A program made the position numbers and the translations under genes. This document shows, in pieces, positions 20,912 through 58,623 of a DNA stretch of 64,000 bases (position 1 is its first letter; every line of letters begins with the position of its first letter). The notes beneath the pieces are model-generated. The model saw only the letters and a program-made list of their open reading frames with translations. It made no database searches and was not told where the DNA came from. Location of the stretch: the IMG/VR virus record IMGVR_UViG_3300024999_000072, positions 1-64,000 of that record; one strand, given 5' to 3'. Source of the DNA: a virus.

Positions 20912-21916
20912 TTATTGAACCAAGTATTGCTTATGCGACTGTTTTCTTTTTTCGTCGGACAGGACAGAGTAAATTAGCGTTGTAGCCGGATCCACGTGCC
21001 CGAGTAATCCCTGGACCGCGACTAGATCCGCTCCGTTGTTTAACATGAGCGTCGCGAAAGTATGGCGAAATATATGCGGATGCACGTTTTTCTTGACCTC
21101 TGAGCGGCCGGCAATGATTTTGACCTCGCGTTGGATGCCCTTGGTCGATAGTCTCCTGTATGGTTTGCGCACGGTTACGAATAGCGCGTCCACAGTGTCG
21201 GAACGCTTCTTTAAGTATTTCTGCAAGTGGTACATGGCCTTGAATGAGAAGTAGACTGTTCGTTCTTTATTGCCCTTACCGACCACTTGAACTGACATTG
21301 CCTGATAGTCAATATCTTGGCGATTTAGTTGTTGTACTTCAGTGAGACGGGCGCCTGTCGCGTAATAGACTTCAATCATTGCGCGTTCGCGCGGGGTTAC
21401 GCAAGCCTCGCGGATCATCTCCAGTTCCTCGATAGTCAAGGCCTTCGGGGTTCTTTGCTCCTTTTTTGGTGGTTTGATCTGCTTGGTTACGTCGTTGGGA
21501 ATTATTTTCTCTGCTGCCAACCATCCGAACATTGATTTCAGAACAGACAATTTCTTGGATATTGACGAGGTTTTAAGGTAGTCAAATTCTCCGAGATAAA
21601 GACGGATATCAGATGTGGTTACTTCATCAGTGGCCTTCGAGACGTGTTCGGAGAATATCCGGAGTTCCAATGTGTAGCTATCTAGGGTTAAAGGGCTTAG
21701 ACCTTCGAGACGTTTCCCAGCCAAGAACAGCTTTATCTTAGCCGCTAGATCGGGATGGCCGTTAGGAATCAAGGCAGGTTTGATGTCGTACTGGGACAGG
21801 ATCATGATTATAGTCTGCTGGAGTTGAAGCTTGTCCACTTTTGGGCAAAGTGAGTTAATGGCGCACATTATCTGCTCCAGCAGGATCTCGGCGGTCGAGC
21901 TAAGTATTTGAGCCAT
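20912..21916 (-). CDS. XerD-like site-specific tyrosine recombinase
   Basis: TGARLTE, GKG, HPHIFRH, LLGH and terminal Tyr catalytic motifs; N-terminal SAM-like domain. Confidence 0.92.
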   Translation of the reverse strand: MAQILSSTAEILLEQIMCAINSLCPKVDKLQLQQTIIMILSQYDIKPALIPNGHPDLAAKIKLFLAGKRLEGLSPLTLDSYTLELRIFSEHVSKATDEVTTSDIRLYLGEFDYLKTSSISKKLSVLKSMFGWLAAEKIIPNDVTKQIKPPKKEQRTPKALTIEELEMIREACVTPRERAMIEVYYATGARLTEVQQLNRQDIDYQAMSVQVVGKGNKERTVYFSFKAMYHLQKYLKKRSDTVDALFVTVRKPYRRLSTKGIQREVKIIAGRSEVKKNVHPHIFRHTFATLMLNNGADLVAVQGLLGHVDPATTLIYSVLSDEKRKQSHKQYLVQ

Positions 21917-25383: not shown

Positions 25384-25417
25384 AAAGCCCCGGGTCGTAA
25401 TGACTCGGGGCTTTTTT
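25384..25417. terminator. bidirectional terminator
   Basis: AAAGCCCCGGGTC/GACTCGGGGCTTT hairpin between convergent units. Confidence 0.8.
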
Positions 25418-25425
25418 GCGTTTTA

Positions 25426-25587
25426 TCAGTTACTTTCCTTAAATAAATCAGGTTTGGCTTCAGCAAGTGCCTTAGCTCTCCTTAAGAACTCAATCTTAGT
25501 AATTCCGAGTTCCTTGCATACTTTTTCAAAGGATTCTTTTTCTTCCGGGAATACATCGAATCTAAGTACTACTTTGCCTTGTGCCAT
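25426..25587 (-). CDS. RHH-like regulator, 53 aa, last gene of the leftward operon
   Basis: Not in ORF track: MAQGKVVLRFDVFPEEKESFEKVCKELGITKIEFLRRA...; AGGAG RBS; overlaps the upstream stop codon. Confidence 0.7.
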   Translation of the reverse strand: MAQGKVVLRFDVFPEEKESFEKVCKELGITKIEFLRRAKALAEAKPDLFKESN

Positions 25588-26087
25588 TATAGATTATTCT
25601 CCTTCATGAATATTATTTTTGCACGTTCGAAATCGGAATCAACCTTATCTTTAGCCATCGGAGCTGCCTTAACCAGCATATTGACCACGTCTTTCTGTAG
25701 ATACCATGTAATTGGCTTGCTATGCGAATATTCCAGATTATCCCCGAACAGGTGCAGGTTTATGGTTTCCTGAGACGCAAGAGAAGAAATACACTTAACA
25801 TGGTCCTCGCGAGTGAGATTAAAAAACACTTCCATCTTGCATGGATCTCCTGGATAGTCATGGATCGTGATCGGCATCCGGATGAGGGGGAATCCGTTGA
25901 TTGAGTGTAATTCGACGCTTATTTCGATCTTGGCCGTTTTCATTTCTCGGGATTTGATCTCCTTGGTGGATAGGCGGACCAGAAGGTCTGTTTGCCAGTT
26001 TACGCCGTCCGCAGATGCGAAAGTAGGGAGACAACCGTAGCCGATTTTTCGGAAGGCTTGGATTTCGATGTAATTTAGCTCAATCAT
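25587..26087 (-). CDS. hypothetical protein
   Basis: AGGAGG RBS; coupled in the operon. Confidence 0.65.
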   Translation of the reverse strand: MIELNYIEIQAFRKIGYGCLPTFASADGVNWQTDLLVRLSTKEIKSREMKTAKIEISVELHSINGFPLIRMPITIHDYPGDPCKMEVFFNLTREDHVKCISSLASQETINLHLFGDNLEYSHSKPITWYLQKDVVNMLVKAAPMAKDKVDSDFERAKIIFMKENNL

Positions 26088-26094
26088 ATATATA

Positions 26095-26754
26095 TTACCT
26101 CCTAAAAACTCTATAACTCAAACCGTTCTTTGATATTTTTTCAAGCATTACGGATAGCCTTTTGTGATTCAACTCAGTTCCAACAAACTTCTTACCATTC
26201 TTTTGGGCGTTTATTCCAACTAATCCGCGCCCCATACAAAGGTCACCAATACAGATATAATCCTCATTCTTGCAAACCCACTCGATAATGTCCTCCTCGT
26301 CCATATAGTCAAGCGGGAGCTTTTTACGCTTTGCGCTGCCTCTAATAACGTAGCATAGATTTTCCTTTTTATGATAATAAGTGCTGTTATAAAATGTAAC
26401 GTGCTTATAAATAGTCTTCATTTCCTGTATAAACTCGCTTAAATACTCTTTCCCAACTTCAACATAACAGACTACCGGGTTTATTTCAGCGATGCACTCA
26501 AAGAGTCTTTTATAAAACGTTGTAAAGCTGTCTTGATAATCCTGTCGTTCCGCTTTTGTGTAGAATGTATTCAGGTTACCAAGGTTCCACGGTGGGTCTA
26601 CGAAAATTAAATCAGCAGGCCACATAATGCCCGGGAGGGGATCGAATATATTGTGAACCTTAACGGTGCTTCCGTCGTCGAAAATAGCGAATTGACCATC
26701 ACTAATGGGGTGACGAAGGTAAGCATCTCCATAGTTCCACTTAACCAACTTCAT
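26095..26754 (-). CDS. minimal beta-class amino-methyltransferase (N6A/N4C fold)
   Basis: Motif IV FVDPPW followed by motif I DLCMGRG...FVGTELN; little room for a TRD. Confidence 0.75.
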   Translation of the reverse strand: MKLVKWNYGDAYLRHPISDGQFAIFDDGSTVKVHNIFDPLPGIMWPADLIFVDPPWNLGNLNTFYTKAERQDYQDSFTTFYKRLFECIAEINPVVCYVEVGKEYLSEFIQEMKTIYKHVTFYNSTYYHKKENLCYVIRGSAKRKKLPLDYMDEEDIIEWVCKNEDYICIGDLCMGRGLVGINAQKNGKKFVGTELNHKRLSVMLEKISKNGLSYRVFRR

Positions 26755-27340
26755 CCACCTCAGTCATTTCCCAAGACTTTGAGTAGATCTGTTTTTTGAA
26801 TAGCTCAGCAATGCCTGTAATCTGCTTGAGCCTGAATACTTCCTCGATTTCCATGCCTAGCTTTTGTGCTACCTCTTCGTCAGGAACACCTTGCTCAATT
26901 AAGGCCTGCACTAGATCACCCATGAGTTCCACCTGATGCACTCCCCGGGCTCGGTTAAATTGGACGGTGGCCTCCATGCGTTGTGCTGGGGTAAGGTCTA
27001 GGACAATGATTGGAATTTCTTCTGCATCTAACCATATTTCCAGAATGCTGTCTCTATGGAAACCGTCTATAATAACGAACTTTTCCAAATCATCATCCCA
27101 TGCTGTAACGATCCCGAAACAAACTCCATTACTCAAGATGGATGTTTCTAAAAGTTCCATGTTGTTTCTTGGCACGCTGTTTGGATTGTAGTTATTAGCC
27201 TGAACGAGATCTCTCGGCACGATGATAGGGCACATAACAGGGAATGATATATCGCCTTTCTTTGTTTTTATTTTCGGAAAGTCTGGTATTTCGTAGACTC
27301 CGTATTTAGTAGCTATTCTTCTCACAGTAATTCCCTCCAT
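26741..27340 (-). CDS. ParB/Srx-domain + HTH protein (IbrB-like)
   Basis: ANNYNPN, IIDGFHR and T...NRARG.H motifs. Confidence 0.85.
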   Translation of the reverse strand: MEGITVRRIATKYGVYEIPDFPKIKTKKGDISFPVMCPIIVPRDLVQANNYNPNSVPRNNMELLETSILSNGVCFGIVTAWDDDLEKFVIIDGFHRDSILEIWLDAEEIPIIVLDLTPAQRMEATVQFNRARGVHQVELMGDLVQALIEQGVPDEEVAQKLGMEIEEVFRLKQITGIAELFKKQIYSKSWEMTEVDEVG

Positions 27341-28440
27341 TTCTTAATAGTGGCCTCCCTGGGATCTGGCTTGTTATCGATAGGGAGATTGTTCTCGTAG
27401 TCGTTCAGAACTAACTGACGGCACTGCTGGCGAGCAACATGGGGATTCGTGAGGTGTTTTCCGAAACGCTTTACGAAGATATCTTTCTTGGTTTCGTCCG
27501 GGTAGGTTTCAAGCAGGAAGTCTCTGTATTCTATCCACGTCTTGTAATTCTTCGGCAGTTTTTGAACTCTTAGCATCTTAGAATCTTTGCCGTACAGATT
27601 GCCAATACTGATACCCTTAACCCTTTTGAGCAACCGATTATAAGTACTAGGTTCAAACTCCGGCAACTCAACCAGCGCCTTGAAGGACTTCTCGTGGATT
27701 AAACTAGATACGCGGATTTCCTGTATCCCCATGCCCTTTTTGTACATATAGTCATAGATTTTCGAATACTTCAATTTTGTATCATAGATATATTTCCATA
27801 TATCATGGAAATTCCAATCATAGAGAGGATAGAAGGCAACGCTTCCGCGTTTCATCTTAGTGCACCAGAAAGTATTTTGGTACCCGGGATTCTTAGCGAC
27901 AGCTCGCCACCGGTTGGGGCTTTCCGTGGCGCGTAGGCCAACGAGAAAGGCTGTATTTTCGCGGGAGTTCTGAAAGTTTTCTAACGCATCATAAAACCCA
28001 AATCCTTTGTTTTTATCCCTGACGGTTTCCGTTTCTATGGGCCATGGTTTGTGCTGAATGGAACCGGTTTTCTTACTACGCATCCACAATTTGTGTTTGC
28101 CAGCTTCCCAGCATATGAGTTGGCCTTCCGTTAGACTCGTGGCGTTGGTGAGCTTAAATTCGATCTGTAGCCATAGCGGGATAGTGTTCTCAGGATACAG
28201 TTTCATGAGGTACTCAATCTGCTTAATTGTGCTGTCGTATACCACCTCTTCATCCAGAAAGAATATGCCGATCTTTCTTCCGCGTTTATTAGCCTCCAAG
28301 AGCGCTAAATGAACCAAGACCGTGCTATCCTTGCCGCCACTTATCGATACAACAATGTTCTCGAACTCGTCAAAAATGTACGACATCCTCTCCTTTGCCG
28401 AGACCAGTACCGACTTATTTATATAAACTTGCTTGAGCAT
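27322..28440 (-). CDS. PAPS-reductase-fold PP-loop protein (IbrA/DUF3440-like)
   Basis: SISGGKDS, LDEE, GLRATESPNR and YPLYDW motifs. Confidence 0.85.
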   Translation of the reverse strand: MLKQVYINKSVLVSAKERMSYIFDEFENIVVSISGGKDSTVLVHLALLEANKRGRKIGIFFLDEEVVYDSTIKQIEYLMKLYPENTIPLWLQIEFKLTNATSLTEGQLICWEAGKHKLWMRSKKTGSIQHKPWPIETETVRDKNKGFGFYDALENFQNSRENTAFLVGLRATESPNRWRAVAKNPGYQNTFWCTKMKRGSVAFYPLYDWNFHDIWKYIYDTKLKYSKIYDYMYKKGMGIQEIRVSSLIHEKSFKALVELPEFEPSTYNRLLKRVKGISIGNLYGKDSKMLRVQKLPKNYKTWIEYRDFLLETYPDETKKDIFVKRFGKHLTNPHVARQQCRQLVLNDYENNLPIDNKPDPREATIKKWRELL

Positions 28441-29290
28441 AGATTGAATCCAACCTCGCTTTCCACGTTACAAACTCGTTAACAATCACGGTGTCGATAG
28501 GTAGGGTGGTGCTTAGATATTTGATCTTGGCCATGCCAGTCGTTTTAATAAAATCGTTAAAACTTAGTCGCCGATAGTGAGTGTCAATAACAATGTATTT
28601 TCCTTGTTTATCTATTTCGTCATAGGTTTTGACGTTATCTAGCTTGAATCGCTTGTTTCTTGCGACGTATAACTCCTCAGGGATAATTGCACATTTCTTA
28701 AGATCACCAGCGAATAGTTGCAGGGACCTCGGTATAGTATCTGGGTCCTTATTACCCAAATTATCGAAGAGTTGGTCCCGTTTTTTCGCGTATTGCTCCT
28801 TATTTTTGTCAGTGATCTCAACGTTGATTGTTTCGATCTTGACGCGGAAGGGCTTAATCTTAATATCCTCAGCTTGCAAAAATACATAATCAAAGGACTT
28901 CCCTTTGTATTTGCCTTTATTATCAAAGTCCAATAAGATCATGAAATCGTTCTTATCGGAGATGATCGGGAAGAACTCAAAGATAATCTTATGTGGAGTC
29001 TGGTTAAGATAGTGGTGAGCACAGTTGTAGATCAACTCACTTCGGTTCGCGGTCCGCATGCAGCCATCCATAATGATAAGGCATGTATTATCTATCTCTT
29101 CAAGAAGTCGGTAGAAGAACTTATACATTTCGATGTCTGCGTACTCGATGTACTCGATGTCGATTGGTACGCTGTACTTGACCGGAAACTTCTTGAAGTA
29201 GAAACAATAGACTTTTTTGATGTCGGTTGCTTGCAGATATGCGTCGATTTCCTTTTGTTTCTCACGGCTGTTTAGGCCTATTCTGATCAT
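28415..29290 (-). CDS. hypothetical protein, possibly a degenerate helicase-like partner
   Basis: Translationally coupled to the SNF2 gene; LIIMD resembles an eroded Walker B; no Walker A. Confidence 0.6.
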   Translation of the reverse strand: MIRIGLNSREKQKEIDAYLQATDIKKVYCFYFKKFPVKYSVPIDIEYIEYADIEMYKFFYRLLEEIDNTCLIIMDGCMRTANRSELIYNCAHHYLNQTPHKIIFEFFPIISDKNDFMILLDFDNKGKYKGKSFDYVFLQAEDIKIKPFRVKIETINVEITDKNKEQYAKKRDQLFDNLGNKDPDTIPRSLQLFAGDLKKCAIIPEELYVARNKRFKLDNVKTYDEIDKQGKYIVIDTHYRRLSFNDFIKTTGMAKIKYLSTTLPIDTVIVNEFVTWKARLDSIYAQASLYK

Positions 29291-30699
29291 AAACCCTTAA
29301 TCAACTCCCTAAGTTTGTTTTTATCACCTTGAGACTTCTCCACCTCCTGGCGAAACGATGCGGCGGCATTCTCCTTGTTAGACAACGCTTTATTGATCCT
29401 ATCGTCAATACTTCCGGAACAATAAATATCGATGTAAGTTACGTCATGCTCCTGGCCTATGCGGTGGTCCCGGTCCTCGGCCTGTAAACGTTCAGAGTAC
29501 TTAAACCCGTTGTTGTAAAATATGACAAAGTGCGACTCATTCAAGGTTAGGCCGTGGCCGCCACAGCTCGGGGTTGACACAAAGAACCGCGCTGGTCCTC
29601 GGAATAGTCCAACTTGTGCGGGACGGTCCTTTTCCTTGATCCCTCCATGGAATTGTGAAACAGAATCCTCGCCGTACTTATCAGACAGAGCTTTTACTAT
29701 CCCGCGTATATCATACATAAACTTGGCCCAGACAATGATCTTCTTGCCCTCAGGGATATCCGCAACCGCATCCATAAATGTCTCCATCCGGTAATGTCGG
29801 AACTCGAATAACTTCATTTTGCCCTTAACGCGGTAATTCCAGAATCCACATACGATCTCCTGCAGGGCCGTAAACATGCGGAAGATAGAAGTCGAGTTAA
29901 AATCTTCGCGGTCCAATTCGGCTAGGAATTTCTCTTTGGCTAAGTGGTATTCGTGAGCTTGTTTATCAGTCATATGGAAATATCGTGTTTCGTAGAGTTT
30001 TTTAGGGAGATCAAGACATTCCTCTTTTGTAATTTGGTAGACATACGGCTTAGTTTTAGCGGCTAGGTATGCGGTGTTGTGGCTCCTCACAATCCGACCC
30101 GGGAACTTCTCGGAATACTCAAGGTGGTTGGCAGCAAAACTGTAGAAGGAGTTATACCCGAGGATCTTGGGCGAGAGAAAACGCATCTGTGCGTAAAGGT
30201 CTACAACACCTTGGGAGAGGGGAGTGCCGGTTAGAATTAGGCGATACCTTGAGCGCGCGCTCATGGCCGTGATCCGTGTCGTGCGCTTTGAGTCGTGGCC
30301 CTTAATATAGCTCGATTCGTCCAAGATAACGAACGTTTTAGCCGTGATTAGCTTATTCGCAGCCAAGACCATGCGTGTACTACTACTCATCGACTCGATG
30401 CCGATAATATACCACAACGCCTTCGGTATTGATCGCTCCCGCGTCTTGCTCCCAAAAACGTAGATATCGGCATCGGTGCAGTCGGTGTGCTTGAGTATCT
30501 CTTGCCGCACGGTTTCTTTGAGTGATACTGGACAAAAGTAAACAACCTTGTCTATCTTATGTTGGCGACGGTAAACAATTTCGAAGGTTGTTCTCGTTTT
30601 CCCTGTCCCCATGTCCATGAAGAGTCCGCCTATGGTAGTGGGAACCATTTTTTCTACAGCCGGTACTTGGTGGGGGAGAAGGTTAGTCTTTAAATTCAT
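29287..30699 (-). CDS. SNF2-family helicase/translocase
   Basis: MDMGTGKT, LDES, LTGTP, GLTL and QAEDR.HRIGQ motifs. Confidence 0.92.
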   Translation of the reverse strand: MNLKTNLLPHQVPAVEKMVPTTIGGLFMDMGTGKTRTTFEIVYRRQHKIDKVVYFCPVSLKETVRQEILKHTDCTDADIYVFGSKTRERSIPKALWYIIGIESMSSSTRMVLAANKLITAKTFVILDESSYIKGHDSKRTTRITAMSARSRYRLILTGTPLSQGVVDLYAQMRFLSPKILGYNSFYSFAANHLEYSEKFPGRIVRSHNTAYLAAKTKPYVYQITKEECLDLPKKLYETRYFHMTDKQAHEYHLAKEKFLAELDREDFNSTSIFRMFTALQEIVCGFWNYRVKGKMKLFEFRHYRMETFMDAVADIPEGKKIIVWAKFMYDIRGIVKALSDKYGEDSVSQFHGGIKEKDRPAQVGLFRGPARFFVSTPSCGGHGLTLNESHFVIFYNNGFKYSERLQAEDRDHRIGQEHDVTYIDIYCSGSIDDRINKALSNKENAAASFRQEVEKSQGDKNKLRELIKGL

Positions 30700-31843
30700 C
30701 CAACACCTCCGTATCGTCAGGTATTTCTAGCACTGGAGCCCTGCTTGTTACAACGGCATAATCCTTTTCTTTCGGCTCCATGGCGATGCCGATAATCGAG
30801 TTATTACGCACCTCCTCTGCTCTTGTGATAACATCCCTAGCTCCGCTCGAAATCTCAAACTTATACATCTCCGCAAAGTCTAGCACCTCCGCGAAGTGCT
30901 CAGGCGAAACGACTACATTCGGCTTATCGTATTTTGCACCAGTGATGGATTTAGCTCGTCGATACAGATTTTCGTCTCGCGACCACGAAATAACGAACCA
31001 TCCGAAGTATTTACCCTCTACTACACGAGATATCCACCGTGTACATTCTGGTTTGTAGTCGGCGTTAATTGCTCTCTCGCGGATCTCAGCGTCGAAGATC
31101 CGGATGGAGAACCCTGCGTATAGGAGTTTGTTTCCGGCTTCAGCAGCGCGGTCCTCAATGGTGCCATTCTTCATCCTTATTCTTCGTTTCCATGATCCTT
31201 CGGACCATACCATGTTTAGTTCTTTTTTCACAAGTTCGCGGAAACTATCTCGTTTCTCGGGGAATCTTATTTCTAGCAGATCGTCAAGGATGCGTATTTC
31301 TGCGACAGTCTCAGTTTTCGGATTCTCCGGCCGGACGGTGGCTTCCGCAAGAATATCCTTGACAACTTCCTTAGGCGGCATAATCTCTTCATGCTTGATC
31401 GTTTCTAATTCTGCGTTTAAAAGCTTCATGACCCCTAGTGAGTCCCTAACTAAAAACCGTCGATCTATCCACCAGTGGGCTCTTGTTTTTCCCGCCTTGA
31501 TGTGTTCGATCGCATCCCGCATATTGGCTTGGGTATCAATGTGCCCTAATCGCTTATCTGCCGCAACCGAATCCATGTATGAAAGCAGTTCTATCCTGAT
31601 TGATTCGGCCCACGGAATCTGCTTCTCTGTGCCGGTTAGTGCAGGGAGATTGTTATCCTTCGCGGCTTCGGCAGCTTCTCGGTTCGCCTCTTTGCGACGG
31701 CGTTGCAGATCGACTTGGTAGCATTCGGAGCAGAGCTTGTCGGCTTCGATGTGTTCTAATTTCCATTCGCAGTCCTTAGTTTTCCCGATCAGGGCCACGG
31801 TTTCCTCGTGGCCGCAGGAGCGGGTGACGGTGTAGTTAGCCAC
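30683..31843 (-). CDS. conserved phage protein (CGH...CxxC, LP.L.G.EKQI.WA..IR)
   Basis: Recognisable N-terminal motif; overlaps the SNF2 start. Confidence 0.75.
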   Translation of the reverse strand: MANYTVTRSCGHEETVALIGKTKDCEWKLEHIEADKLCSECYQVDLQRRRKEANREAAEAAKDNNLPALTGTEKQIPWAESIRIELLSYMDSVAADKRLGHIDTQANMRDAIEHIKAGKTRAHWWIDRRFLVRDSLGVMKLLNAELETIKHEEIMPPKEVVKDILAEATVRPENPKTETVAEIRILDDLLEIRFPEKRDSFRELVKKELNMVWSEGSWKRRIRMKNGTIEDRAAEAGNKLLYAGFSIRIFDAEIRERAINADYKPECTRWISRVVEGKYFGWFVISWSRDENLYRRAKSITGAKYDKPNVVVSPEHFAEVLDFAEMYKFEISSGARDVITRAEEVRNNSIIGIAMEPKEKDYAVVTSRAPVLEIPDDTEVLDEFKD

Positions 31844-32399
31844 TGCCCCACATCCAAGCCACAAACTTGTCAGCGTCCCATCCTAGCTCATCGCACGCGT
31901 CGAAGATGGAATCCATCCAGTCGGGATGATATTCATTACCTTCGCCAACGATCTTGTCAACTGACTTGAGATACTGAGCAAATGCTTCGCGTCCTTCTTT
32001 GCCTAACTCTACGAGCTCAGGGATCGACTTGAATTTTAGTATTTCGGACATCCAAAACTTTTTACGATAGATCTCTTCCATATCGCTTGGCTTTGCATAT
32101 ACCTCGACGTGATCATAATTTCCCTCGTTCACGATCTGGTTAAAAAATACGTCAACTTGCAACATCTGATCGCTAATCGTCATGTGAGGCGCAGGTGTAA
32201 CCTTAAAGCTAGAACCATGATCAGGCGCTACTCGCTTACTTGCCCACACTTGACTAATCTCATTATCCTTAATACGGATCTCAATAGAGAATTCACCGAA
32301 AGGATATTCTCCGGTTACGACAACTGCGTAACGACCGTGGCCGAACTTAAAGTTTTTTACTGCTTCAAACGCTTCGCTGGTTAGTTCTATTAGGTTCAT
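31836..32399 (-). CDS. hypothetical protein
   Basis: AAGGAGG RBS before MNLIELT; lies downstream of the ribozyme. Confidence 0.7.
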   Translation of the reverse strand: MNLIELTSEAFEAVKNFKFGHGRYAVVVTGEYPFGEFSIEIRIKDNEISQVWASKRVAPDHGSSFKVTPAPHMTISDQMLQVDVFFNQIVNEGNYDHVEVYAKPSDMEEIYRKKFWMSEILKFKSIPELVELGKEGREAFAQYLKSVDKIVGEGNEYHPDWMDSIFDACDELGWDADKFVAWMWGSG

Positions 32400-32427
32400 G
32401 GCTTCATCCTCCTTATTTCTGGGCCTA

Positions 32428-32492
32428 TAACCCTTGAGCGCCGCACCCTTTCGGGTGGTCCTGGCTTGCACAGGACTGGGCCTAGCGGGCTA
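32428..32492 (-). ncRNA. twister-sister self-cleaving ribozyme (three-way-junction type)
   Basis: Minus strand UAGCCC-GCUAGGCC-CA-GUCCUG-UGCAAGC-CAGGAC-CACCC-GAAA-GGGUG-C-GGCGCUCA-A-GGGUUA; all stems pair; conserved GCnAGGCC, UGCAAG and GGCGCUCA elements present. Confidence 0.88.
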
Positions 32493-32711
32493 GGAAATTT
32501 CAGGATACAATGTCTCGTTAATCATCTCCTGAAGCTTCTTCGCTTCAGGAATCATCCATTTCGGCGAATTTTTAGCCTGTTCTGAATCAGGCTCACATAT
32601 CGAATAGTGCTCCCCATCCCAATTCCGAATATAGACAGTAGGTGATCCCATAGATGTCCTGACCACTATTTCTGGCCCTAGCTCCCATTTACCGATTTCA
32701 ATTTTTTCCAT
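32490..32711 (-). CDS. hypothetical protein
   Basis: RBS after the repeated hairpin; its stop codon lies in ribozyme P1. Confidence 0.65.
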   Translation of the reverse strand: MEKIEIGKWELGPEIVVRTSMGSPTVYIRNWDGEHYSICEPDSEQAKNSPKWMIPEAKKLQEMINETLYPEIS

Positions 32712-32721
32712 TTCGTAACGC

Positions 32722-32747
32722 CCTTTCGCCGGATTGGCCCGGCTGGC
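32722..32747 (-). repeat. pre-RBS hairpin motif, copy 2
   Basis: GCCAGCCGGGCCAATCCGGCGAAAGG. Confidence 0.75.
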
Positions 32748-32754
32748 CTAATTC

Positions 32755-32964
32755 CTAAACTCCAAACATCGACCATTCTTCCTCGATTGCTACTGGCTGT
32801 AATCCACTCAGTACCTTTTCTCTAAGTATGCTTAATTTACTTTTCTCCATCAGCATGCTGTCAAATTTTTCGCGTCCCATTAATGCAACCTCATTGTTGA
32901 TTGTATCAAGTTTATCATTCAGTAGGTCCAGGACTGTTTTTAGATCATTTTTATTTAGTTCCAT
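32755..32964 (-). CDS. hypothetical protein, first gene of the leftward operon
   Basis: GAGGG RBS; follows a strong promoter. Confidence 0.65.
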   Translation of the reverse strand: MELNKNDLKTVLDLLNDKLDTINNEVALMGREKFDSMLMEKSKLSILREKVLSGLQPVAIEEEWSMFGV

Positions 32965-32999
32965 TTCATTCCCTCGCTCTCAACTCTTGATCTTAATTA

Positions 33000-33028
33000 A
33001 TTATACAGCACGTTACGTTATGCGTCAA
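33000..33028 (-). promoter_or_regulatory. strong sigma-A promoter with CGTAAC operator repeats
   Basis: TTGACG-N17-TATAAT; spacer contains TAACGTAACG; palindrome TTCGTAA-N4-TTACGAA at 33047-33064. Confidence 0.8.
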
Positions 33029-33101
33029 GGGATAAACAGGGGTATTTTCGTAATAATTTACGAATAAAAAAAGCCCCCACTTTCGTCAGGGACCAATAAT
33101 T

Positions 33102-33971
33102 TCACACCTTCGTCCGTGTTTTACCAAGTTCGAACTCGTGAATCCTTGCGGTCAAAGTCTGAATCCGATCTTGGAGAGTATCGATTTTGACCGTATATTC
33201 GTCTTTAAGTTTAGCTGTTGATTCGAGCACACGATTATTGGCATCGATCCCTGCCGCATGAATCTGCAGGTCAGCCATTTTTTGCATAGAGGCCAATTCG
33301 CCGGCATGAGTCTTTTCTCTGGTTGTAATAGCTTGCTCTTTGATTTCGATCACATGGAGATGTTGAGATGATTCTGTAATGAGTTTTTCGATTTGGCGCC
33401 GAGACTCTTTGCGCTGCGCCCTAAGCTCTTGTACTTCAGCTTCCATTTCAGCCACGGTCCCGATCCGCGCCTCCAAGGTTTCGTTTTGATTTGTTAGTAG
33501 CTCGATAGTTATACGATTAGATTTATTAACGGCTTCAAGCTCGCTATTTCTCTCAGAAAGCTCTTTGAGCTGATCCTGAATTTCGGCCAAATCCAACCGA
33601 GCTTTGTCGCGCTCAACTTCAGCATGAAGACGACTCTTATCTACCTGGTCGACAATTCCTTGATGCACTCGTTTTTCTTGATCGATGCTTTCTGTGAAGT
33701 TTTCCTTCAGGTCATGAAGTTTCTGGACCATGTTTGTAAAGATTGATTCGGCATGGGATAGGTGGTAACGAAGCTGCTGCATATCCTCGGTTTGCTCAGT
33801 GTCGCTACTGGCTAATAAATTCGTTTTGAATTGTGTAACCATGGCCGCGAATAGTTCTTTTTGGCTAAGGCCAGTTACTTTTAATAGCTCGCCCACAGAT
33901 TCAGTAATGTCACTTGTGGTTTTTACCGAGTATGTAGGCGGGACTGCCTTAATTTCCTTTTCATCCGACAT
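33102..33971 (-). CDS. long coiled-coil protein with a putative N-terminal DNA-binding region (KfrA-like architecture)
   Basis: Heptad-rich 289 aa; GGAGG RBS. Confidence 0.65.
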   Translation of the reverse strand: MSDEKEIKAVPPTYSVKTTSDITESVGELLKVTGLSQKELFAAMVTQFKTNLLASSDTEQTEDMQQLRYHLSHAESIFTNMVQKLHDLKENFTESIDQEKRVHQGIVDQVDKSRLHAEVERDKARLDLAEIQDQLKELSERNSELEAVNKSNRITIELLTNQNETLEARIGTVAEMEAEVQELRAQRKESRRQIEKLITESSQHLHVIEIKEQAITTREKTHAGELASMQKMADLQIHAAGIDANNRVLESTAKLKDEYTVKIDTLQDRIQTLTARIHEFELGKTRTKV

Positions 33972-34025
33972 GATTTAAAACCTCCTCCAAGATAGGTATA
34001 CTTTTTACCCTTGATATAAGCGGTG

Positions 34026-34092
34026 TTTACTTAGGTAAACTTGTAAACTTTTTGTATACTATTATTATAGCGCCAATATTTGTTAGTTGCAA
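34026..34092 (-). promoter_or_regulatory. sigma-A promoter with downstream GTTTAC/GTAAAC boxes
   Basis: TTGCAA-N17-TATAAT at 34092-34064; three GTAAAC-type boxes at about 34025-34048. Confidence 0.65.
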
Positions 34093-34151
34093 GAGCATAA
34101 AAAGACACCGGGGATTAAACCCAGTGCGATAAGGTGTTGTAAAAGGAGAGC

Positions 34152-34355
34152 TTAGCCGCTCTCCTTTTTGTTTATCCCGATCTTTATTTCGTAGACCGAC
34201 TTTTCAATCTCCCTCACCGACTCGATCAACTCCGAATTTGCCTGTCGTACACCATTCCTGACAGCCATCTTGATTAGGTAGTAGAGGAGAATGAGGGACA
34301 GGAACCATAGGCAGAGGAAGAGAAGAGTGTTAGGGAGAAGGAATGCGTCGTGCAT
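34152..34355 (-). CDS. small single-TM protein
   Basis: TM helix followed by IKMAVRNGV. Confidence 0.65.
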   Translation of the reverse strand: MHDAFLLPNTLLFLCLWFLSLILLYYLIKMAVRNGVRQANSELIESVREIEKSVYEIKIGINKKESG

Positions 34356-34378
34356 GGGATCATTCCTTTCAATAGTGG

Positions 34379-36332: not shown

Positions 36333-37010
36333 TCACTTCATAAAATCTTTGGGGTCAACAGCCTTCCCTCCAATCCTAATCTCAAAATGCAGGTGAGGAC
36401 CTGTTGAATTCCCGGTAGTCCCGATCTCAGCAATCTTGTCACCGCCTAGAATCATCTTTCCCTCCGGTACTAATACCTTTGAGCAGTGGGCGTAAAGCGT
36501 TCCGTAATTATTGCCATGATCGATGATGATGTACAGCCCATAAGTACTATCTTCAGCAACTTTCTCCACCGTTCCGGGACGACTAACCCTAATCGGATCG
36601 CCTATCTTCCCAGCAATGTCCAGTCCGTGATTGTTCTCGTTGTAGCCTTGGGTAACTTTTCCCTTCACCGGCCAATCAAACTTCGCATTGCCGGTTAATC
36701 TCTCCCAAATCCCCTGATATCCTACGCTCCCGGCCGGGGAAACGGCATCTCCGATTTGCTTCTGGACCCCTTTGCTTTCGCCGAGTAAATCATTAACCTT
36801 ATCCCGTCCTTGGCTATAGGTCTGAGCGGCTACATGAATATCGTTACTGAGTTGTTTAAATGGTGCGGCTACCCCAGACAGGACCATCAACCCAAGACTA
36901 ACGACACCTAACCACTTAACGAGCATCGCCATATCTTTGCCGGCAGAATGACGAACGTATAAATAAACAACCAGATACAAGGCACTTAGCCTAACAAAAT
37001 CAGCGATCAT
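36333..37010 (-). CDS. 2-TM + M23/LytM-domain protein with a degenerate first zinc motif
   Basis: YAH and STGPHLHFE are intact; HxxxD reads NHGLD; N-terminal TM hairpin with GKDMAMLV. Confidence 0.85.
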   Translation of the reverse strand: MIADFVRLSALYLVVYLYVRHSAGKDMAMLVKWLGVVSLGLMVLSGVAAPFKQLSNDIHVAAQTYSQGRDKVNDLLGESKGVQKQIGDAVSPAGSVGYQGIWERLTGNAKFDWPVKGKVTQGYNENNHGLDIAGKIGDPIRVSRPGTVEKVAEDSTYGLYIIIDHGNNYGTLYAHCSKVLVPEGKMILGGDKIAEIGTTGNSTGPHLHFEIRIGGKAVDPKDFMK

Positions 37011-37213: not shown

Positions 37214-37923
37214 TGCGATTCCCCCTTTTTCGCGTTGTGTACGTTGAAACAAAACTTCTTGACTTCATCTAGGGTTAGGACTTCGACGAGGTACGAATAG
37301 GCCCGATCATTCTTAACGATTTTCTGAATGATGTCAGTTGGTCCATCTGTCACAATGAGGATGGTAAAATTCTGCTCCTTATTCAAGTCAATCCACCAAT
37401 GAGGACGGGCCCCTTGGGATTTCTCCTGAATAAGTTTTTTTGCCAGATCATTGTATTGCTTAATCTTCTTGAACTCATTACCGGATTCGTGCCGATTAAA
37501 TTCACAAAAGAAAGGTTTTAGTTCGGGAGTTTTGAACGTGATAAATTGATCCGGTTGGACGATGGGGAGAAATTCCTTTGGTTCGTTCTGGAAGGTTAGA
37601 TGGAACTTGCTCTCCCTGGCCCTAATGGTCATAAAGGTATAGATCCAACTCTTCCCAATGGTGTGCTCGACGTTTCTTGGGGCCTTCTCGTCAACTAACC
37701 AAAAGTAATCCTTCTCGGAAAACGATATACGATTTCCGCGCTTAATACGTTTTTTCTTAACTAGCCTCCTAGTGCAACGATGGACCATTTCCACAGATAA
37801 TCCAGCGAACTCAAGCAAATGGATTTGATCCGTGTTCAAGCAGTTGCAGCGCTCTAGGTGAGCTAGAACCCGTAAATCTCGGGAGTAGCCCTTTACGTGA
37901 CTTGCTTGACTTGTGTTGCTCAT
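37141..37923 (-). CDS. replication-relaxation (Replic_Relax) family protein
   Basis: N-terminal wHTH LNTDQI; conserved EH, PD and E.R...KIKQY; follows FtsK. Confidence 0.7.
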   Translation of the reverse strand: MSNTSQASHVKGYSRDLRVLAHLERCNCLNTDQIHLLEFAGLSVEMVHRCTRRLVKKKRIKRGNRISFSEKDYFWLVDEKAPRNVEHTIGKSWIYTFMTIRARESKFHLTFQNEPKEFLPIVQPDQFITFKTPELKPFFCEFNRHESGNEFKKIKQYNDLAKKLIQEKSQGARPHWWIDLNKEQNFTILIVTDGPTDIIQKIVKNDRAYSYLVEVLTLDEVKKFCFNVHNAKKGESQCSQESQRQPQSSQYSGLRLVSKL

Positions 37924-39175
37924 AGTCATGCACCTCGCCTTGAATATCTTCGTATGGCATAGCGAACTGGGGGAGTCTGGAAAGGAGTTCGTGGTAACGG
38001 TCGGGATCGGAAACAACAGAAGGGAAATACATAGACTGAACCTCTATCTCTTCATCCCAGTCGAATATTGCTCGGCCCTTAGCCTTCTTTGGTATGAAGG
38101 CTGCTTTGCTATTGCCTAAAATCATGTTGGAGTTCACGGTATCCTTAACCCGGTAAACGAGATTAGCGTCAAACATAGCTTTCAACTCAGGGAATGAACC
38201 GATCTTACCGAGCGCACCGGAACTAGGGCGTTGGATTGCTCCGACAGTAAATATTCCCTGAGATCTGCCAACATGGAGAAGCCGATGATAGGAGTTATAG
38301 GCATCCTTTGTTAACTCTCCCATCTCATCGCAACACAGAACGATTGCCGGCATCTTGTGCCCGATCTGAAGGAACTCCGGAAAGTTTCTTGCGCCGGTTG
38401 AATTAACAATCGGAGCCCTACGGTCGTTCTCGTCGTTAACCCACTGCAGGAGTTTTTCGATGTGATGGGGTTTTTTTGCCCACAAAAGTCCATGCTTTTC
38501 GAGATACTGAAACTCACCTAGTTTAGGATCCAGCATAACGGGTATTACACGAGGCTGTTGGTCAATGCGGTTCATACTCAGAAGGGTATAGAGGATTACG
38601 TGTTCGATGTTTGACTTCCCGCTGCCCATCATGCCAACGATGAGGAGTGTGAGCATTTCGGCAAGATCCTTGACGACAAGTCCGTTAATGGAGTAGCCCA
38701 CAGGGAAGGGGAGTAGCATACCTTTCTTGATATAGGGGGAGGGGTCGAACTCGTAGGGATAGGACTTCTTGCGGTCCACGTTACTAACTGTCATATGCAC
38801 CGCCATTCCGTGGGCTTCGATCTGACAGGTGCCATCCTCACCTAAAGCATCAGCAAAGGTCTGCTCTAAGGACTTGAACTTCTCGAAGTTGTGTCCAGGC
38901 GGGAGGTTGATCACAAAGAACCATGTTTCGTCAGAGTGGTCATCCATGGACTTGATTCGGCTTATGATCTCCTTCAGGCTCTTAGGGGCCTCCGATTTAG
39001 ATTTAGGCTCCTTGGGTTCGTCGAGTCTCTTCTCGATGATGAGGGGACGGTAATCCTCTCCGTAGACGTGGACTATGACATCGTAGATCTTGGCGGGGAT
39101 ACCGCCGCCTCGTTCTCTGCCGCGCCGCCACTGCCTCATGGCGTGGTCGTAAAGATCATGTCGTTCTGTTGTCAC
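37811..39175 (-). CDS. FtsK/SpoIIIE-family DNA translocase/coupling ATPase
   Basis: GMMGSGKS, LDPK, DEMGEL, GRSQG..AIQRP and KGRA motifs; no TM or gamma domain evident. Confidence 0.9.
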   Translation of the reverse strand: MTTERHDLYDHAMRQWRRGRERGGGIPAKIYDVIVHVYGEDYRPLIIEKRLDEPKEPKSKSEAPKSLKEIISRIKSMDDHSDETWFFVINLPPGHNFEKFKSLEQTFADALGEDGTCQIEAHGMAVHMTVSNVDRKKSYPYEFDPSPYIKKGMLLPFPVGYSINGLVVKDLAEMLTLLIVGMMGSGKSNIEHVILYTLLSMNRIDQQPRVIPVMLDPKLGEFQYLEKHGLLWAKKPHHIEKLLQWVNDENDRRAPIVNSTGARNFPEFLQIGHKMPAIVLCCDEMGELTKDAYNSYHRLLHVGRSQGIFTVGAIQRPSSGALGKIGSFPELKAMFDANLVYRVKDTVNSNMILGNSKAAFIPKKAKGRAIFDWDEEIEVQSMYFPSVVSDPDRYHELLSRLPQFAMPYEDIQGEVHDYEQHKSSKSRKGLLPRFTGSSSPRALQLLEHGSNPFA

Positions 39176-41232: not shown

Positions 41233-42273
41233 TTAAATCAAATCTACTGCTTTTTTTAATTCCTCAATATCTTTATGGGTGTAAACCTTGTCGGTGATAT
41301 CATTACTGGCGTGTCCCATAATTCTTTTAATACTCACCTTATTCGCGCCGGCATTATCCATTAGAGTGGCGAAGGTGTGCCTACAATCATGCGGACGATG
41401 ATCTGGCATTTCCAATTGCTCCATAATAATCTTCCATTTCTCTTCGTAGTAATTCCAATACTTCATTTGTTTGTTTTCGTGATTTACGATTAAAAACTCG
41501 TGCCCCTTATCCTTCCTCTCAGCTATATATGGGAGGATTTTTTTATTAATAGGTATGATTCGATTTTTCCCTGCTGCTGTTTTGAGGCCGCCTTTCATGG
41601 TCCTATTCTCAATGTCGATATCTGCTGTTTTTATCAAAAGTAATTCGCCAACACGTAGACCGGTATAAATCATAATCAAAGTGGTGTCTATAAAATCCAT
41701 CCTATCAACGTTATTAGTTAATAACGCAATCTCATCTTGTGTAAATGGCCTCCGGGTGCTTTCTGATTCGTTCTCTCCTATCTCGACAAATTTCGAATAG
41801 TCCTTATCTACAATATCATTTTCAAGTGCGTACTTGAAAAGCTGATTAAATAAAACTTTGATCTTTTTTAAAGTCCCGTGACCTTTCTCGCATTGGTCAA
41901 TTACGCTTTGCATGTGTGGTTTTTTGATCTCGGTGAATTTCGTATCATATAGGTCTGTAGAGTGATTATAGGCGGCATTATATCCATTTATGGTTGATTT
42001 TGAGTTTGTTTTCTTGAATTTTTCCTCCGACCATTTTCCGTAAAGCTCAGAGAAGGTAATTGCTTGATCTATAGAATATGGATTTTTATGGTATTCAGCT
42101 AAAGCAAGAAGGGCTTCTTGGCGCGTTTTAAAGTATCCGATAGGCTTGTAAAGCTGTTTAAGCTTACCTTTATCTTCGTCAAGTTCCCACCCTGTAGTGA
42201 CCCTTGCGCGGAATGGTCGTCTTCGTTTTCCTGATAACTTACTAATATTTCCGAAGCCATTGGGGTTTCTCAC
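41233..42273 (-). CDS. int: phage tyrosine integrase
   Basis: Arm-binding N-terminus RNPNGFG; TGLRVGE, KT, HDCRH, GH and Y catalytic residues. Confidence 0.95.
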   Translation of the reverse strand: MRNPNGFGNISKLSGKRRRPFRARVTTGWELDEDKGKLKQLYKPIGYFKTRQEALLALAEYHKNPYSIDQAITFSELYGKWSEEKFKKTNSKSTINGYNAAYNHSTDLYDTKFTEIKKPHMQSVIDQCEKGHGTLKKIKVLFNQLFKYALENDIVDKDYSKFVEIGENESESTRRPFTQDEIALLTNNVDRMDFIDTTLIMIYTGLRVGELLLIKTADIDIENRTMKGGLKTAAGKNRIIPINKKILPYIAERKDKGHEFLIVNHENKQMKYWNYYEEKWKIIMEQLEMPDHRPHDCRHTFATLMDNAGANKVSIKRIMGHASNDITDKVYTHKDIEELKKAVDLI

Positions 42274-49256: not shown

Positions 49257-49603
49257 CCTCAAAACTGTTGCCCTATAAAGTAATAATTCCCTTCGTTGGT
49301 GAAGAGTTGAAAAGAATTTGGAACGTTGTTGGCGACCGGCTCATGAAAGTCGATTGGATCAAGCTTGAGGTAGAAGCTTATCAAAATTTGCAGAAAAAGA
49401 AACAACATCACAAACGTTGGGCGAAGCTTATGCAAAGTGGCGGCATGGTTCGGGATAGCGAAACCGATAAATCGAATCATAAAACGTTGGCCACGGTAAC
49501 CGACAGAGGGATTACCGTTGAGTACATGGATGGGCGAATGATCGGGCAGAGGCATGTCATCCCGTTGTTTATCGATTCGACTCAGTGGGGAGGGATGAAA
49601 TGA
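49247..49603 (+). CDS. hypothetical protein
   Basis: Translationally coupled ORF. Confidence 0.55.
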   Translation: MALTSKLLPYKVIIPFVGEELKRIWNVVGDRLMKVDWIKLEVEAYQNLQKKKQHHKRWAKLMQSGGMVRDSETDKSNHKTLATVTDRGITVEYMDGRMIGQRHVIPLFIDSTQWGGMK

Positions 49604-49854
49604 AAAACTCATTAGGTGATCTAAACAACCATTTGTTCGCGCAGTTAGAACGTTTAGGAGACGAAGAGACCAAGGAAGAAAAATTGGTAGAGGAAATCAA
49701 CAGGGCAAAAGCTATTACTCAGGTTGCTGTGCAAATTATCTCTAATGGAAAACTGGTGCTCGATGCCCTAAAGGTAAAGGATGAATACTTGGGTGGAGAA
49801 AGCAAGAAGATGCCAGCCATGCTTCGCGAAGCGTTTGTTCCATCAGGTGATTAG
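49600..49854 (+). CDS. conserved phage protein (HNH partner)
   Basis: MKNSLGDLNNHLFAQLERL...EINRAKA. Confidence 0.8.
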   Translation: MKNSLGDLNNHLFAQLERLGDEETKEEKLVEEINRAKAITQVAVQIISNGKLVLDALKVKDEYLGGESKKMPAMLREAFVPSGD

Positions 49855-49855
49855 C

Positions 49856-50500
49856 GTGAATCGAAAGTACAGCGACGAGCAGGTGGGGTATATACGAGAG
49901 AATATCACAGGACGGAGCTTCAAGGAATTAACAGCTATGTTTAACGCTCGATTTGGAATGGACTTAAAGGTTTCGGCAGTGATTTCGTTTGCTGATCGTA
50001 ATGGCCTTCACAACGGTCGCGATTCGCGCTTTAACAAAGGCTATGCCCCTACACAGTTTAAGAAAGGGCATGTTCCGTTCAATAAAGGAACGAAGGGAAT
50101 CAGTTATTCAGGGATGGAGACAACTCAATTTAAGAAAGGTAACAAGCCTGCCAATTGGGTGCCTCTAGGGTCAGAGAGAATCACCAAAGACGACTATATC
50201 CAAATCAAAGTGCAGGACGGTAAGCTGCAAAAGAACTGGCGAGGCAAACATATCCTAGTCTGGGAGGAGCATAACGGCCCCCTTCCTAAAGGACATGTTA
50301 TTGTTTTTGGCGACAAGGATAAGCGGAACTTTGATCTTGAAAATCTTATCCTCGTATCTCGAAAACAACTTGTAAGGCTTAATCAGCACAATCTAATTCA
50401 GGGTAACGCTAATCTTACTAGGACGGGGGTTATTATCGCAGATATTTGTAACACCATCGGCGAGAGGAAGAGAAGTAGAAAGGAGAGCCAAATTGGATAA
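49856..50500 (+). CDS. HNH endonuclease (HNH_3 type)
   Basis: TQFKKG repeats; KHILVWEEHNGPLPKG...NL. Confidence 0.85.
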   Translation: MNRKYSDEQVGYIRENITGRSFKELTAMFNARFGMDLKVSAVISFADRNGLHNGRDSRFNKGYAPTQFKKGHVPFNKGTKGISYSGMETTQFKKGNKPANWVPLGSERITKDDYIQIKVQDGKLQKNWRGKHILVWEEHNGPLPKGHVIVFGDKDKRNFDLENLILVSRKQLVRLNQHNLIQGNANLTRTGVIIADICNTIGERKRSRKESQIG

Positions 50501-56749: not shown

Positions 56750-58623
56750 GCCTCCTAGATGGCCTAAATGAGCAACAACTACAAGCGGTTACGTCTGATA
56801 GTTCAACTATTTTAAATTTGGCTGGGGCAGGATCTGGTAAAACCAGAGTCCTGACCCACAGAATAACCCATCTCCACCAAGAGAAGCGAGTGGGTACCAG
56901 CAACATACTCGCCATAACGTTTACTCGTCTCGCGGCCAAGGAAATGAAAGAGCGGACCATGAAGCTCGTTGGGAAGAGCGAGGGTTACAAGCTAACGATT
57001 GGGACATTCCATAGTTTCTGCGTGCGAGTCCTCAAGGAATGGGGCCACTTGGTTTCTTTGGAGAAAAACTTCACCATCTATACCGAAGACGATCGGAGGG
57101 CGATTATTCAGTCGTGTATTGATGAATTGGGTTATAAGGTCAAGTTGCAGGATGTTATGGATAATCTCTATGTTGTCTCGCCCGATGATTCGCAAGTGGC
57201 TAAAGTAGCAGCAGAATATCGTTATCGTTTGGTCAGAAATAACGCTTTGGATCTTGATGGGTTACTAGTTTACTTGAGGGTAGTCCTAACGTTTCCCCAA
57301 GCTCAAGCAGAATTGCAAAATCGATACCGTTACGTTTTTGTTGATGAGTTTCAGGACACCAACGACATTCAGCTTGAAATTATTAGTTTGCTTAATCCGG
57401 ATAACCTTTTTGTGGTGGGAGATGATTTCCAGTCAATTTATGGGTTCCGTGGCTCCAATGTTCGAAACATCATTGAGTTTCCGAACAAGTATCCTGGATG
57501 CGAAGTTGTCAAGCTCGAGCGCAATTATCGGTCGACAAAGCAGATTGTTTCAGCTGCCGATTCGCTCATTAAGCACAATCTTAGTCAAACTGAAAAGGCG
57601 CTAATTACCGATCGTGATGGTGCGGATATAAGATACACAGTCATGCCAGACGACGGCATTGAAGCGATGAATGTTGCTGACATGATAAGTGCGGAGTTCA
57701 AGCTGACGGAAACATGGTCAGGCATCGCAGTTTTGGCGCGAACGAATCGACAGCTACAGAAGGTTAAAGATGCCTTGGATCAAAGAGATATTCCATCCCT
57801 GATCGTTTCAAGTCAAGATGATGTTTTCAAGAAACATGATATCCGAATGATTATCGCGTTTATCGAAGCGGCAATTAACCCGTTAGATGATATGAACATC
57901 CGCAAGGTGATCAACTTCCCTGAAGCAAGGGTTACTGATCTCGATATTCAAAAACTTGAGCTTGTAGCGCTAGAGCTTGGACAAAGTCTCTCGGACGTTA
58001 TGTTCATCGGAACAGAAAAGGAAAGGGACTTTCTTAAACTTTTAAGATTAACCCGCGAATCTTCCGAGGAACACGAAACCGCCCTCGAGGTAATCGAAGA
58101 AGCAATACACCAACTTGACCTTAGGTTTTATTACTACAATGAGGGCTTAAATAATCGGGCGGAAGATCTTGCAACTATGTTTATTGAGGTAGAACGATGG
58201 CAAAACGTTCAAGAGTCACTCGGGGAGCCTAACGGAATCTATTCGTTCTTGAAATGGCTCAGAATGAAGGACATTCAAGAAAAGCTAGTCCAAGAGAAAG
58301 AAAAAGATGCAGTAAAGCTCATGACGGTTCACGCATCCAAGGGCCTAGAATTTCCGGTGGTCTTTGTGATTGGGATGAATCAAGGTGTATTCCCCAGTAA
58401 GAGAACTGAGGATATAGAGGAAGAACGTCGACTATTCTACGTTGCGATCACTAGGGCAAAGGATCGGCTATATCTCACACGCCCGGAGTATAGAACGGCT
58501 TATCAGGGAGGGCCAATGGTTCTGCAAGCTGAGAGCCAATTCATTCGCGAAATTAATATTGAGCAGTCGAGAGTATCCAGTAAGCCACAAGGAAAGGCGG
58601 CGAACTTCGAATGGTTGGAGTAG
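56746..58623 (+). CDS. UvrD/PcrA-family helicase
   Basis: AGAGSGKT, VDEFQDTN, GDDFQSIYGFRG, TVHASKGLEF and YVAITRA motifs. Confidence 0.95.
   Translation: MSLLDGLNEQQLQAVTSDSSTILNLAGAGSGKTRVLTHRITHLHQEKRVGTSNILAITFTRLAAKEMKERTMKLVGKSEGYKLTIGTFHSFCVRVLKEWGHLVSLEKNFTIYTEDDRRAIIQSCIDELGYKVKLQDVMDNLYVVSPDDSQVAKVAAEYRYRLVRNNALDLDGLLVYLRVVLTFPQAQAELQNRYRYVFVDEFQDTNDIQLEIISLLNPDNLFVVGDDFQSIYGFRGSNVRNIIEFPNKYPGCEVVKLERNYRSTKQIVSAADSLIKHNLSQTEKALITDRDGADIRYTVMPDDGIEAMNVADMISAEFKLTETWSGIAVLARTNRQLQKVKDALDQRDIPSLIVSSQDDVFKKHDIRMIIAFIEAAINPLDDMNIRKVINFPEARVTDLDIQKLELVALELGQSLSDVMFIGTEKERDFLKLLRLTRESSEEHETALEVIEEAIHQLDLRFYYYNEGLNNRAEDLATMFIEVERWQNVQESLGEPNGIYSFLKWLRMKDIQEKLVQEKEKDAVKLMTVHASKGLEFPVVFVIGMNQGVFPSKRTEDIEEERRLFYVAITRAKDRLYLTRPEYRTAYQGGPMVLQAESQFIREINIEQSRVSSKPQGKAANFEWLE

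Follow-up and report, generated by a model that had tools for sequence, protein, structure and literature searches.

In the portions of the literature on which the present comparison rests, the twister-sister ribozyme is described as an RNA that cleaves at C62-A63 in a loop, L1, between helices P1 and P2 (PMC5660989, in part), and the same cut site is given elsewhere (PMC8495972, in part). Residues G5 and A63 are reported to be essential, an A8U replacement to be partly defective, and any base to be tolerated in place of C62; with the four-way ribozyme, A7U cleaves like wild type and U64 is seen to pair non-canonically with the essential G5 (PMC5660989, in part). Copies of this and of other bacterial ribozyme classes have been observed near hypothetical and phage-like genes (PMC8782182, in part), and the natural role of the twister-sister ribozymes was not found to be established in the literature. 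The copy described here, from a phage genome, is probably a functional three-way twister-sister ribozyme that sits within a polycistronic message and splits the mRNA of an operon; judged from sequence, this reading was given a probability of about 0.8.

The locus lies within an 82.6-kb IMG/VR virus record (IMGVR_UViG_3300024999_000072; 85% complete according to CheckV), of which positions 1 to 64,000, here called the window, were analyzed. The window has the content of a temperate phage, with genes for a large terminase, portal, major head and tape-measure proteins at 0.5-14 kb and helicases beyond 53 kb; no tRNAs were found in its 64 kb. A first-pass annotation, made from the letters alone, had proposed a twister-sister ribozyme at 32428-32492 and had named the Rfam covariance model as the means of checking it. 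When the window was compared with all 4227 Rfam families, the twister-sister family (RF02681) was indeed matched at 32493..32425 on the minus strand over model positions 1-81, i.e., the full length of the model, scoring 54.4 bits, 20 more than the curated gathering score of 34, with an E value of 1.8e-9. A search of the entire 82.6-kb record with RF02681 recovered the same element (E = 5.5e-13) and found no second copy, and no other Rfam family reached its gathering threshold in the window, the twister-sister copy being the sole match. A permissive scan of the window (E<=1) added one match only, to n00280, a C. difficile sRNA that lies inside a helicase gene; it is sub-threshold (58389-58491, plus strand; 35.5 bits vs a gathering score of 65.2) and likewise falls inside a 625-aa helicase ORF.

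The minimum free energy (MFE) fold obtained with ViennaRNA recovers P1, P2, P4, P5 and the three-way junction, at an energy that is unremarkable (z = -1.35; 23 of 200 shuffles were equally stable). Because the MFE is no better than that of shuffled sequences, the case for a ribozyme is made by the covariance model and not by fold energy. An ordinary energy is also what a chance or decayed look-alike would give, with no ribozyme present at the site, but the E values of both searches, the 20-bit excess and the match along the full model reduce the probability of such a reading to almost nothing. A chance match is thus excluded for practical purposes, and the element is confirmed, on homology, as a genuine copy of the class. 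In the alignment to RF02681, 13 consensus positions that form an optional extra hairpin are deleted, which assigns the copy to the three-way-junction form; the junction linker of 2 nt (CA) and the MFE fold agree with this assignment, which the first-pass annotation had also made.

On the minus strand, 32493-32425 reads CUAGCCC-GCUAG-GCC-CA-GUCCU-GUGCAAGCC-AGGAC-CACCC-GAAA-GGGUG-C-GGC-GCUCAA-GGGUUA-UAG, and the three-way ribozyme that it encodes (32425..32493) retains all four helices and all conserved blocks. The 5' arm of P1, UAGCCC (32487..32492), pairs with GGGUUA (32433-32428) to give 6 bp. It is followed by the 5' strand of L1, GCUAG (32482..32486; consensus GCAAG), and by P2, which is formed by GCC and GGC (32481-32479 and 32442-32440). 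P4, comprised of GUCCU and AGGAC (32476-32472 and 32462-32458; extendable to GUCCU(G)/(C)AGGAC), closes with its 5 bp the exact SL4 loop block GUGCAAGCC (32463..32471), the loop expected in this class to dock onto L1, while the P5 hairpin CACCC-GAAA-GGGUG (32444..32457) is found in the sequence, the RF02681 alignment and the MFE fold alike. The 3' strand of L1 is GCUCAA (32434..32439), and cleavage is predicted, by homology to C62-A63, between C32436 and A32435, which is where the earlier reading had put it; the helices, conserved blocks and coordinates listed in that reading are all present on this strand. By comparison with the residues discussed in PMC5660989 (in part), G5, C6, A8 and G9, then G59, C60, U61 and A63, as well as the SL4 block, are conserved. 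Two departures from the consensus were noted, viz. a U at L1 position 7 (U32484, the equivalent of A7U) and an A after the cut-site CA (A32434, which replaces the consensus U64 and is thus equivalent to U64A).

The meaning of these departures was assessed with other phage copies. A strict three-block motif was found in at least 112 IMG/VR stretches, in which 157 copies were listed, often as 2-5 copies per few kilobases; 147 of the 157 have a four-way junction and 10 the short three-way junction. The three-way form with canonical blocks was found in 14 stretches across all of IMG/VR, three of which proved to be inner matches of four-way copies, leaving 11 loci. The description of the class as rare therefore holds only in a relative sense: it does not fit the at least 112 stretches that carry the motif, and it does fit the canonical three-way form. 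The search pattern left both position 7 and the base after CA free. A U at position 7 occurs in 10 of the 157 listed copies and at 4 of the 11 three-way loci, and an A after CA in 8 of the 157 and at 8 of the 11, where it is the majority state. Being frequent among the three-way loci, both departures are regarded as the normal state of this sub-form and not as decay. The P4 and P5 sequences of the window were found in none of the 157 other listed copies and yet are perfectly paired; relative to GUCCC/GGGAC, P4 is changed on both sides in a compensatory manner. The P1 of the window copy is extendable to 6-8 pairs, whereas 4 pairs are found in 111 of the 157 listed copies.

The ribozyme is on the same strand as the surrounding genes and occupies the one large gap of their operon. 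All of the following features down to orf166 are on the minus strand. A terminator-like hairpin (33094-33072) precedes orf69, and between the two is a promoter-like TTGACG-17-TATAAT (33028-33000), at which transcription of the unit probably begins. Upstream of the cut are orf69 (32964-32755) and orf73 (32711-32490), both without a family match. The first gene after the cut, orf187 (31836..32399), is also without a family match and is nearly an orphan; a search of a large protein database gave two proteins, the window's own and a fragment of 84% identity (P0002), and no relatives were found in a search of viral contigs. There follows a module that extends from orf393 to orf166 (25587..31864), has domain matches and is conserved in relatives. 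Within it, orf393, with a probable GTG start at 31843, overlaps the stop codon of orf187 and is succeeded by a SNF2 helicase (30699-29287; PF00176, PF00271), orf291, a protein that combines a PAPS-reductase domain with DUF3440 (28440-27322), a ParB-like protein (27340-26741; phrog_2159), a DNA methylase (26754-26095; PF01555) and, after a short gap, orf166. Successive genes from orf187 through the methylase overlap by a few bases, and a strong terminator hairpin (25384-25414) lies near the downstream end of the block. The PAPS-reductase+DUF3440 and ParB-like proteins are a pair that we take to be IbrA/IbrB; no curated family cut-off was reached. The first-pass annotation held that the cut separates the two first genes from the SNF2/IbrAB/methyltransferase message, and as a statement about layout, from the promoter at 33028-33000 to the terminator at 25384-25414, this stands.

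Several features around this unit deserve mention in their own right. The module proteins show only weak similarities of the DndC and DpdE/ZorD types, none at a curated cut-off. The minus-strand block is bracketed by two integrase-like genes (phrog_1; 20912-21916 and 41233-42273, both on the minus strand) and also includes an FtsK/SpoIIIE-like gene (37811-39175) and an M23-type peptidase gene (36333-37010). Given that a related record, G001, has the same overall order, this bracketed block looks like phage architecture rather than a nested element. A second, decayed ribozyme was considered for the gap between orf69 and orf73 (32754-32712) and rejected: the alignment with the ribozyme is unconvincing, shuffled sequences fold just as well (z = +0.83), and Rfam at E<=1 returns no match there. 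Finally, a megablast search of a phage collection with the 5 kb around the site returned no match.

The position of the ribozyme between its neighboring genes is precise. The stop codon of orf73 (TAG, 32492-32490) provides the first three bases of the P1 5' arm, just as had been claimed. At the other side, a Shine-Dalgarno (SD) sequence, AAGGAGG (32414-32408), and the ATG of orf187 (32399-32397) span 32397..32414, so placed that the 3' product would carry a 36-nt leader from the predicted cut to ATG 32399, in good agreement with the approximately 35 nt given in the first reading; a leader of 54 nt was counted from the ribozyme end to the SD/ATG region. Among the 157 listed IMG/VR copies, upstream ORFs being counted if they had at least 45 codons, a stop was found within -20 to +8 nt of the P1 start in 128 of the 150 with an upstream ORF, and in 49 of those 128 the ORF overlaps P1 or L1; the next SD-bearing start mostly follows the cut by 35-62 nt. 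The window, with a stop offset of 0 and 36 nt from the cut to the ATG, is therefore typical of the family in its layout. Placement between genes is thus the usual situation for the twister-sister class, and what is unusual at this locus is confined to the scarcer three-way form and the gene neighborhood. Stop codons lie close to P1 throughout the family, which makes it plausible that terminating ribosomes, as the first-pass annotation suggested, could modulate folding of the ribozyme.

Release of a leaderless mRNA with its AUG at the cut was also considered, given that an AUG lies exactly at the cut site in 147 of the 157 listed copies. This was rejected: the AUG is ribozyme consensus (A63, U64 and the first G of P1), the real SD-bearing starts are found another 35-62 nt downstream, and at the cut the window itself reads AAG. 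As a side effect, the cut-site AUG resembles a start codon and may be taken for one by ORF callers, which then make the downstream genes too long; 73 of 145 downstream ORFs initially called for the listed copies began at it.

A change in the pairing of P1 upon cleavage is suggested by the sequence just beyond the cut. The freed 3' arm of P1, GGGUU (32433-32429), is predicted to pair across a loop of AUA with GGCCC (32425-32421), forming a 5'-terminal hairpin on the 3' product (32421..32433, minus strand) that begins 2 nt from the new 5' end. Hairpins of 4-6 bp at position +1 or +2 were found for 8 of 10 unique three-way products, that of the window included. Their arms represent four sequences (GGGUU/GGCCC, CCUGC/GCAGG, AGCC/GGCU and AGGG/CCCU), and in each such copy the downstream strand of the hairpin repeats the P1 5' arm; the hairpin covaries among these copies. 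The three-way copies compared are mutually related, five of them carrying one arm sequence, and shuffled tails reach the single hairpins in 3-56% of trials, each taken alone being statistically weak. With all junction forms of the listed copies combined, a hairpin of at least 5 bp occurs in 55% of 108 unique products, compared to 33% of shuffles. According to ViennaRNA, the arm in the uncut 111-nt RNA pairs in P1 with a probability of 0.87, as opposed to 0.11 for the alternative partner downstream. For the two strands of the cut RNA, the MFE structure contains the hairpin, and their association contributes no more than -2.7 kcal/mol. The fold energy of the 3' product as such is unremarkable (z = -0.50). 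In these models, the hairpin evidence fits a one-way switch, with the arm held in P1 before the cut and the 5' end capped after it. A 9-nt direct repeat, UAGGCCCAG, was also observed on the minus strand at 32484-32476 (L1/P2) and 32427-32419 (the 3' strand of the hairpin); it is read as a by-product of complementarity to the same P1 arm and not as an insertion scar.

The module downstream of the ribozyme is found widely without it. Relatives of the SNF2 helicase numbered 291 in IMG/VR, of which 80 loci were kept (L114-L193). Homologs of orf393 were found just upstream of SNF2 at 48 of the 80, with a PAPS-reductase-like gene after it at 65 and a ParB-like gene at 64; orf187 was present at one, and orf69 and orf73 at none of these 80 loci. 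The arrangement orf393/SNF2/PAPS-reductase+DUF3440/ParB-like, sometimes with the methylase, is widespread in IMG/VR and at prophage-like loci of Clostridia and several other phyla; the best bacterial relative of the PAPS-reductase-like gene is from Pelotomaculum propionicicum (84%), and most others are from Clostridia. RF02681 was absent from the 50 closest SNF2-related phage records, each searched whole (the scan ended short of the 30 more distant loci), and from 32 bacterial genomes with a PAPS-reductase-like relative (L194-L225), in a search that does recover the window's own copy; at the 10 closest SNF2 loci (L114-L123), no Rfam family of any kind reached its gathering threshold. The ribozyme is not part of the module, which, as its absence from the 50 phage records and 32 bacterial genomes indicates, works without it. 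When 15 window proteins were compared with the listed 112 ribozyme-bearing loci, none were common to both except for one weak SNF2 match of 25% identity.

The closest comparison is with L114, a ribozyme-less locus with 82% identity in SNF2 that is contained in G001, a 42.1-kb record (98% complete) collinear with the window record. Homology between the two ends at 34379 and resumes at 31842, this right-hand junction being exactly the start codon of orf393. Between the homologous flanks are 2,536 bp in the window (31843-34378), which contain orf67, orf289, the terminator, the promoter, orf69, orf73, the ribozyme and orf187, vs 443 bp in L114 (5422-5864) with a terminator, a TTGCAT-17-TATAAT promoter, a leader and one 94-aa ORF. 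The leader of L114, ATTAAGAT.AAGAGTTGA.AGCGAGG, is nearly identical to that of the window. As promoter/leader and module are thus both conserved with L114, it is the cargo between them that is variable, and in the window this cargo consists of three orphan genes and the ribozyme. The four runs listed for window positions 31800-33100 are all DNA contigs of one groundwater study, with no RNA run among them, and the three compared in detail (X1, X3 and X4) show DNA variants only. In the same samples a second contig matches to 31842 and then continues with an L114-type, ribozyme-less leader, at a depth about equal to that of the other (225 against 229). These contigs, possibly from the source samples of the record, show only the co-occurrence of the ribozyme-less relative. 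Elsewhere in the 82.6-kb record (G000), 49585-50476 and 75948-76520 both match G001 at approximately 35.3-36.1 kb (60-83% amino acid identity), an indication that the longer of the two records contains a gene duplication.

Such variability invites the view that the ribozyme is an intact but dispensable passenger of a recombined 2.5-kb segment, perhaps even inactive by virtue of the A after the cut. Its absence from each of the 50 related phage records and 32 module-bearing bacterial genomes would be in keeping with this, as would its location within the segment that L114 replaces with 443 bp, the equal depth of the ribozyme-less junction in the same samples, and the U64A-equivalent change at A32434, U64 being the partner of the essential G5 in the four-way structure (PMC5660989, in part). 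Against this, the conserved blocks and four helices are all intact, the stop-to-SD placement and the refolding hairpin match the family pattern exactly, and most three-way loci likewise have an A after CA; this explanation is judged very improbable.

For a functional ribozyme, the following course of events is proposed. The message would begin at the promoter near 33000, and the ribozyme would fold once transcribed, with the 3' end of orf73, stop codon included, serving as part of P1. Self-cleavage between C32436 and A32435, which in this class depends on divalent metal, would then yield two pieces. The 5' piece would comprise the leader, orf69, orf73 with an intact stop codon and nearly the whole folded ribozyme, ending in a 2',3'-cyclic phosphate; the 3' piece would begin with a 5'-OH and a 36-nt leader and carry orf187, orf393 and the SNF2, PAPS-reductase-like, ParB-like and methylase genes. 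With P1 now held only between two molecules, the freed GGGUU could pair with the GGCCC eight bases downstream, which would leave two bases between the new 5' end and a presumably protective hairpin. Overall, the two variable leader genes would have their fate, in terms of stability and hence dosage, uncoupled from that of the long DNA-modification message.

The opposite outcome for the long message has also been weighed, namely that the cut lowers expression of the downstream module, its 5'-OH end feeding a 5'-to-3' exonuclease of the RNase J type while the leader genes outlast and out-express the long message. RNase J1 does degrade the 5'-OH product of the glmS ribozyme in B. subtilis (PMC3328962, in part). 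Among bacteria, the module has its closest relatives mostly in Firmicutes of the Clostridia type, with that of P. propionicicum the best, and the 5' piece would retain a compact folded 3' end. Nevertheless, the RNase J1 precedent is from B. subtilis and the host of the phage may differ, protection of the new 5' end is the better explanation for a covarying hairpin so near to it, and the strong SD sequence and overlapping downstream genes suggest a message that is meant for translation. Down-regulation by the cut is thus judged unlikely, albeit somewhat less so than a passenger ribozyme.

Returning to a cut that protects the long message, the ribozyme and the sequence downstream of it may be viewed, more speculatively, as a two-state device in which the same arm, GGGUU(A), would close P1 and thereby make the ribozyme active before the cut, and would cap the 5'-OH end after it. 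Capping would both make the cut irreversible and shield the long message from nucleases that depend on the 5' end. Since orf73 ends with a stop codon that is part of P1, ribosomes terminating there could favor one state over the other. Devices of this kind could serve phages as portable, promoter-free "mRNA start sites", cassettes that recombination might place ahead of any module, in this instance one whose relatives are without a ribozyme. This extension is offered tentatively; it is a distinct possibility but not the expected outcome.

The class, its phage context and its layout at gene junctions are already known, and what is specific to this locus is the scarcer three-way form and a context in which the relatives lack the ribozyme. 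As a discovery, this is modest. Its value would lie in providing a clean, single-copy test case for the role of the class: the ribozyme has a defined position, with variable leader genes on one side and the long, conserved DNA-modification module on the other; relatives that naturally lack it can serve as controls, one of them similarly abundant in the same groundwater samples; and mutations can be made in the covarying, refolding hairpin without touching the catalytic core.

In relation to known systems, the window copy is closest to the three-way twister-sister ribozyme of structure 5T5A (PMC5660989, in part; RF02681), with which it shares the P1-L1-P2 arrangement with a cut-site CA in L1, the SL4 loop GUGCAAGCC, P4 and P5 on the junction, and a short CA linker; it differs from that form by the U at position 7 and by an A in place of U after the cut-site A. 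The four-way copies of gut phages (L002-L113) are likewise on the gene strand, have a stop codon at or in P1 and an SD sequence and ATG a few dozen nucleotides past the cut, and their freed P1 arm likewise refolds, in prediction. Those loci are mostly four-way and often arranged in arrays, whereas the present record holds a single three-way copy in 82.6 kb. The glmS ribozyme of the Firmicutes is likewise a self-cleaving element in an mRNA leader, and its cut leaves a 5'-OH end on which the fate of the downstream message depends (PMC3328962, in part). The glmS ribozyme, however, employs a metabolite cofactor, has a different fold and leads to decay, whereas the ribozyme of the window gives no sign of a ligand and its new 5' end carries a predicted hairpin.
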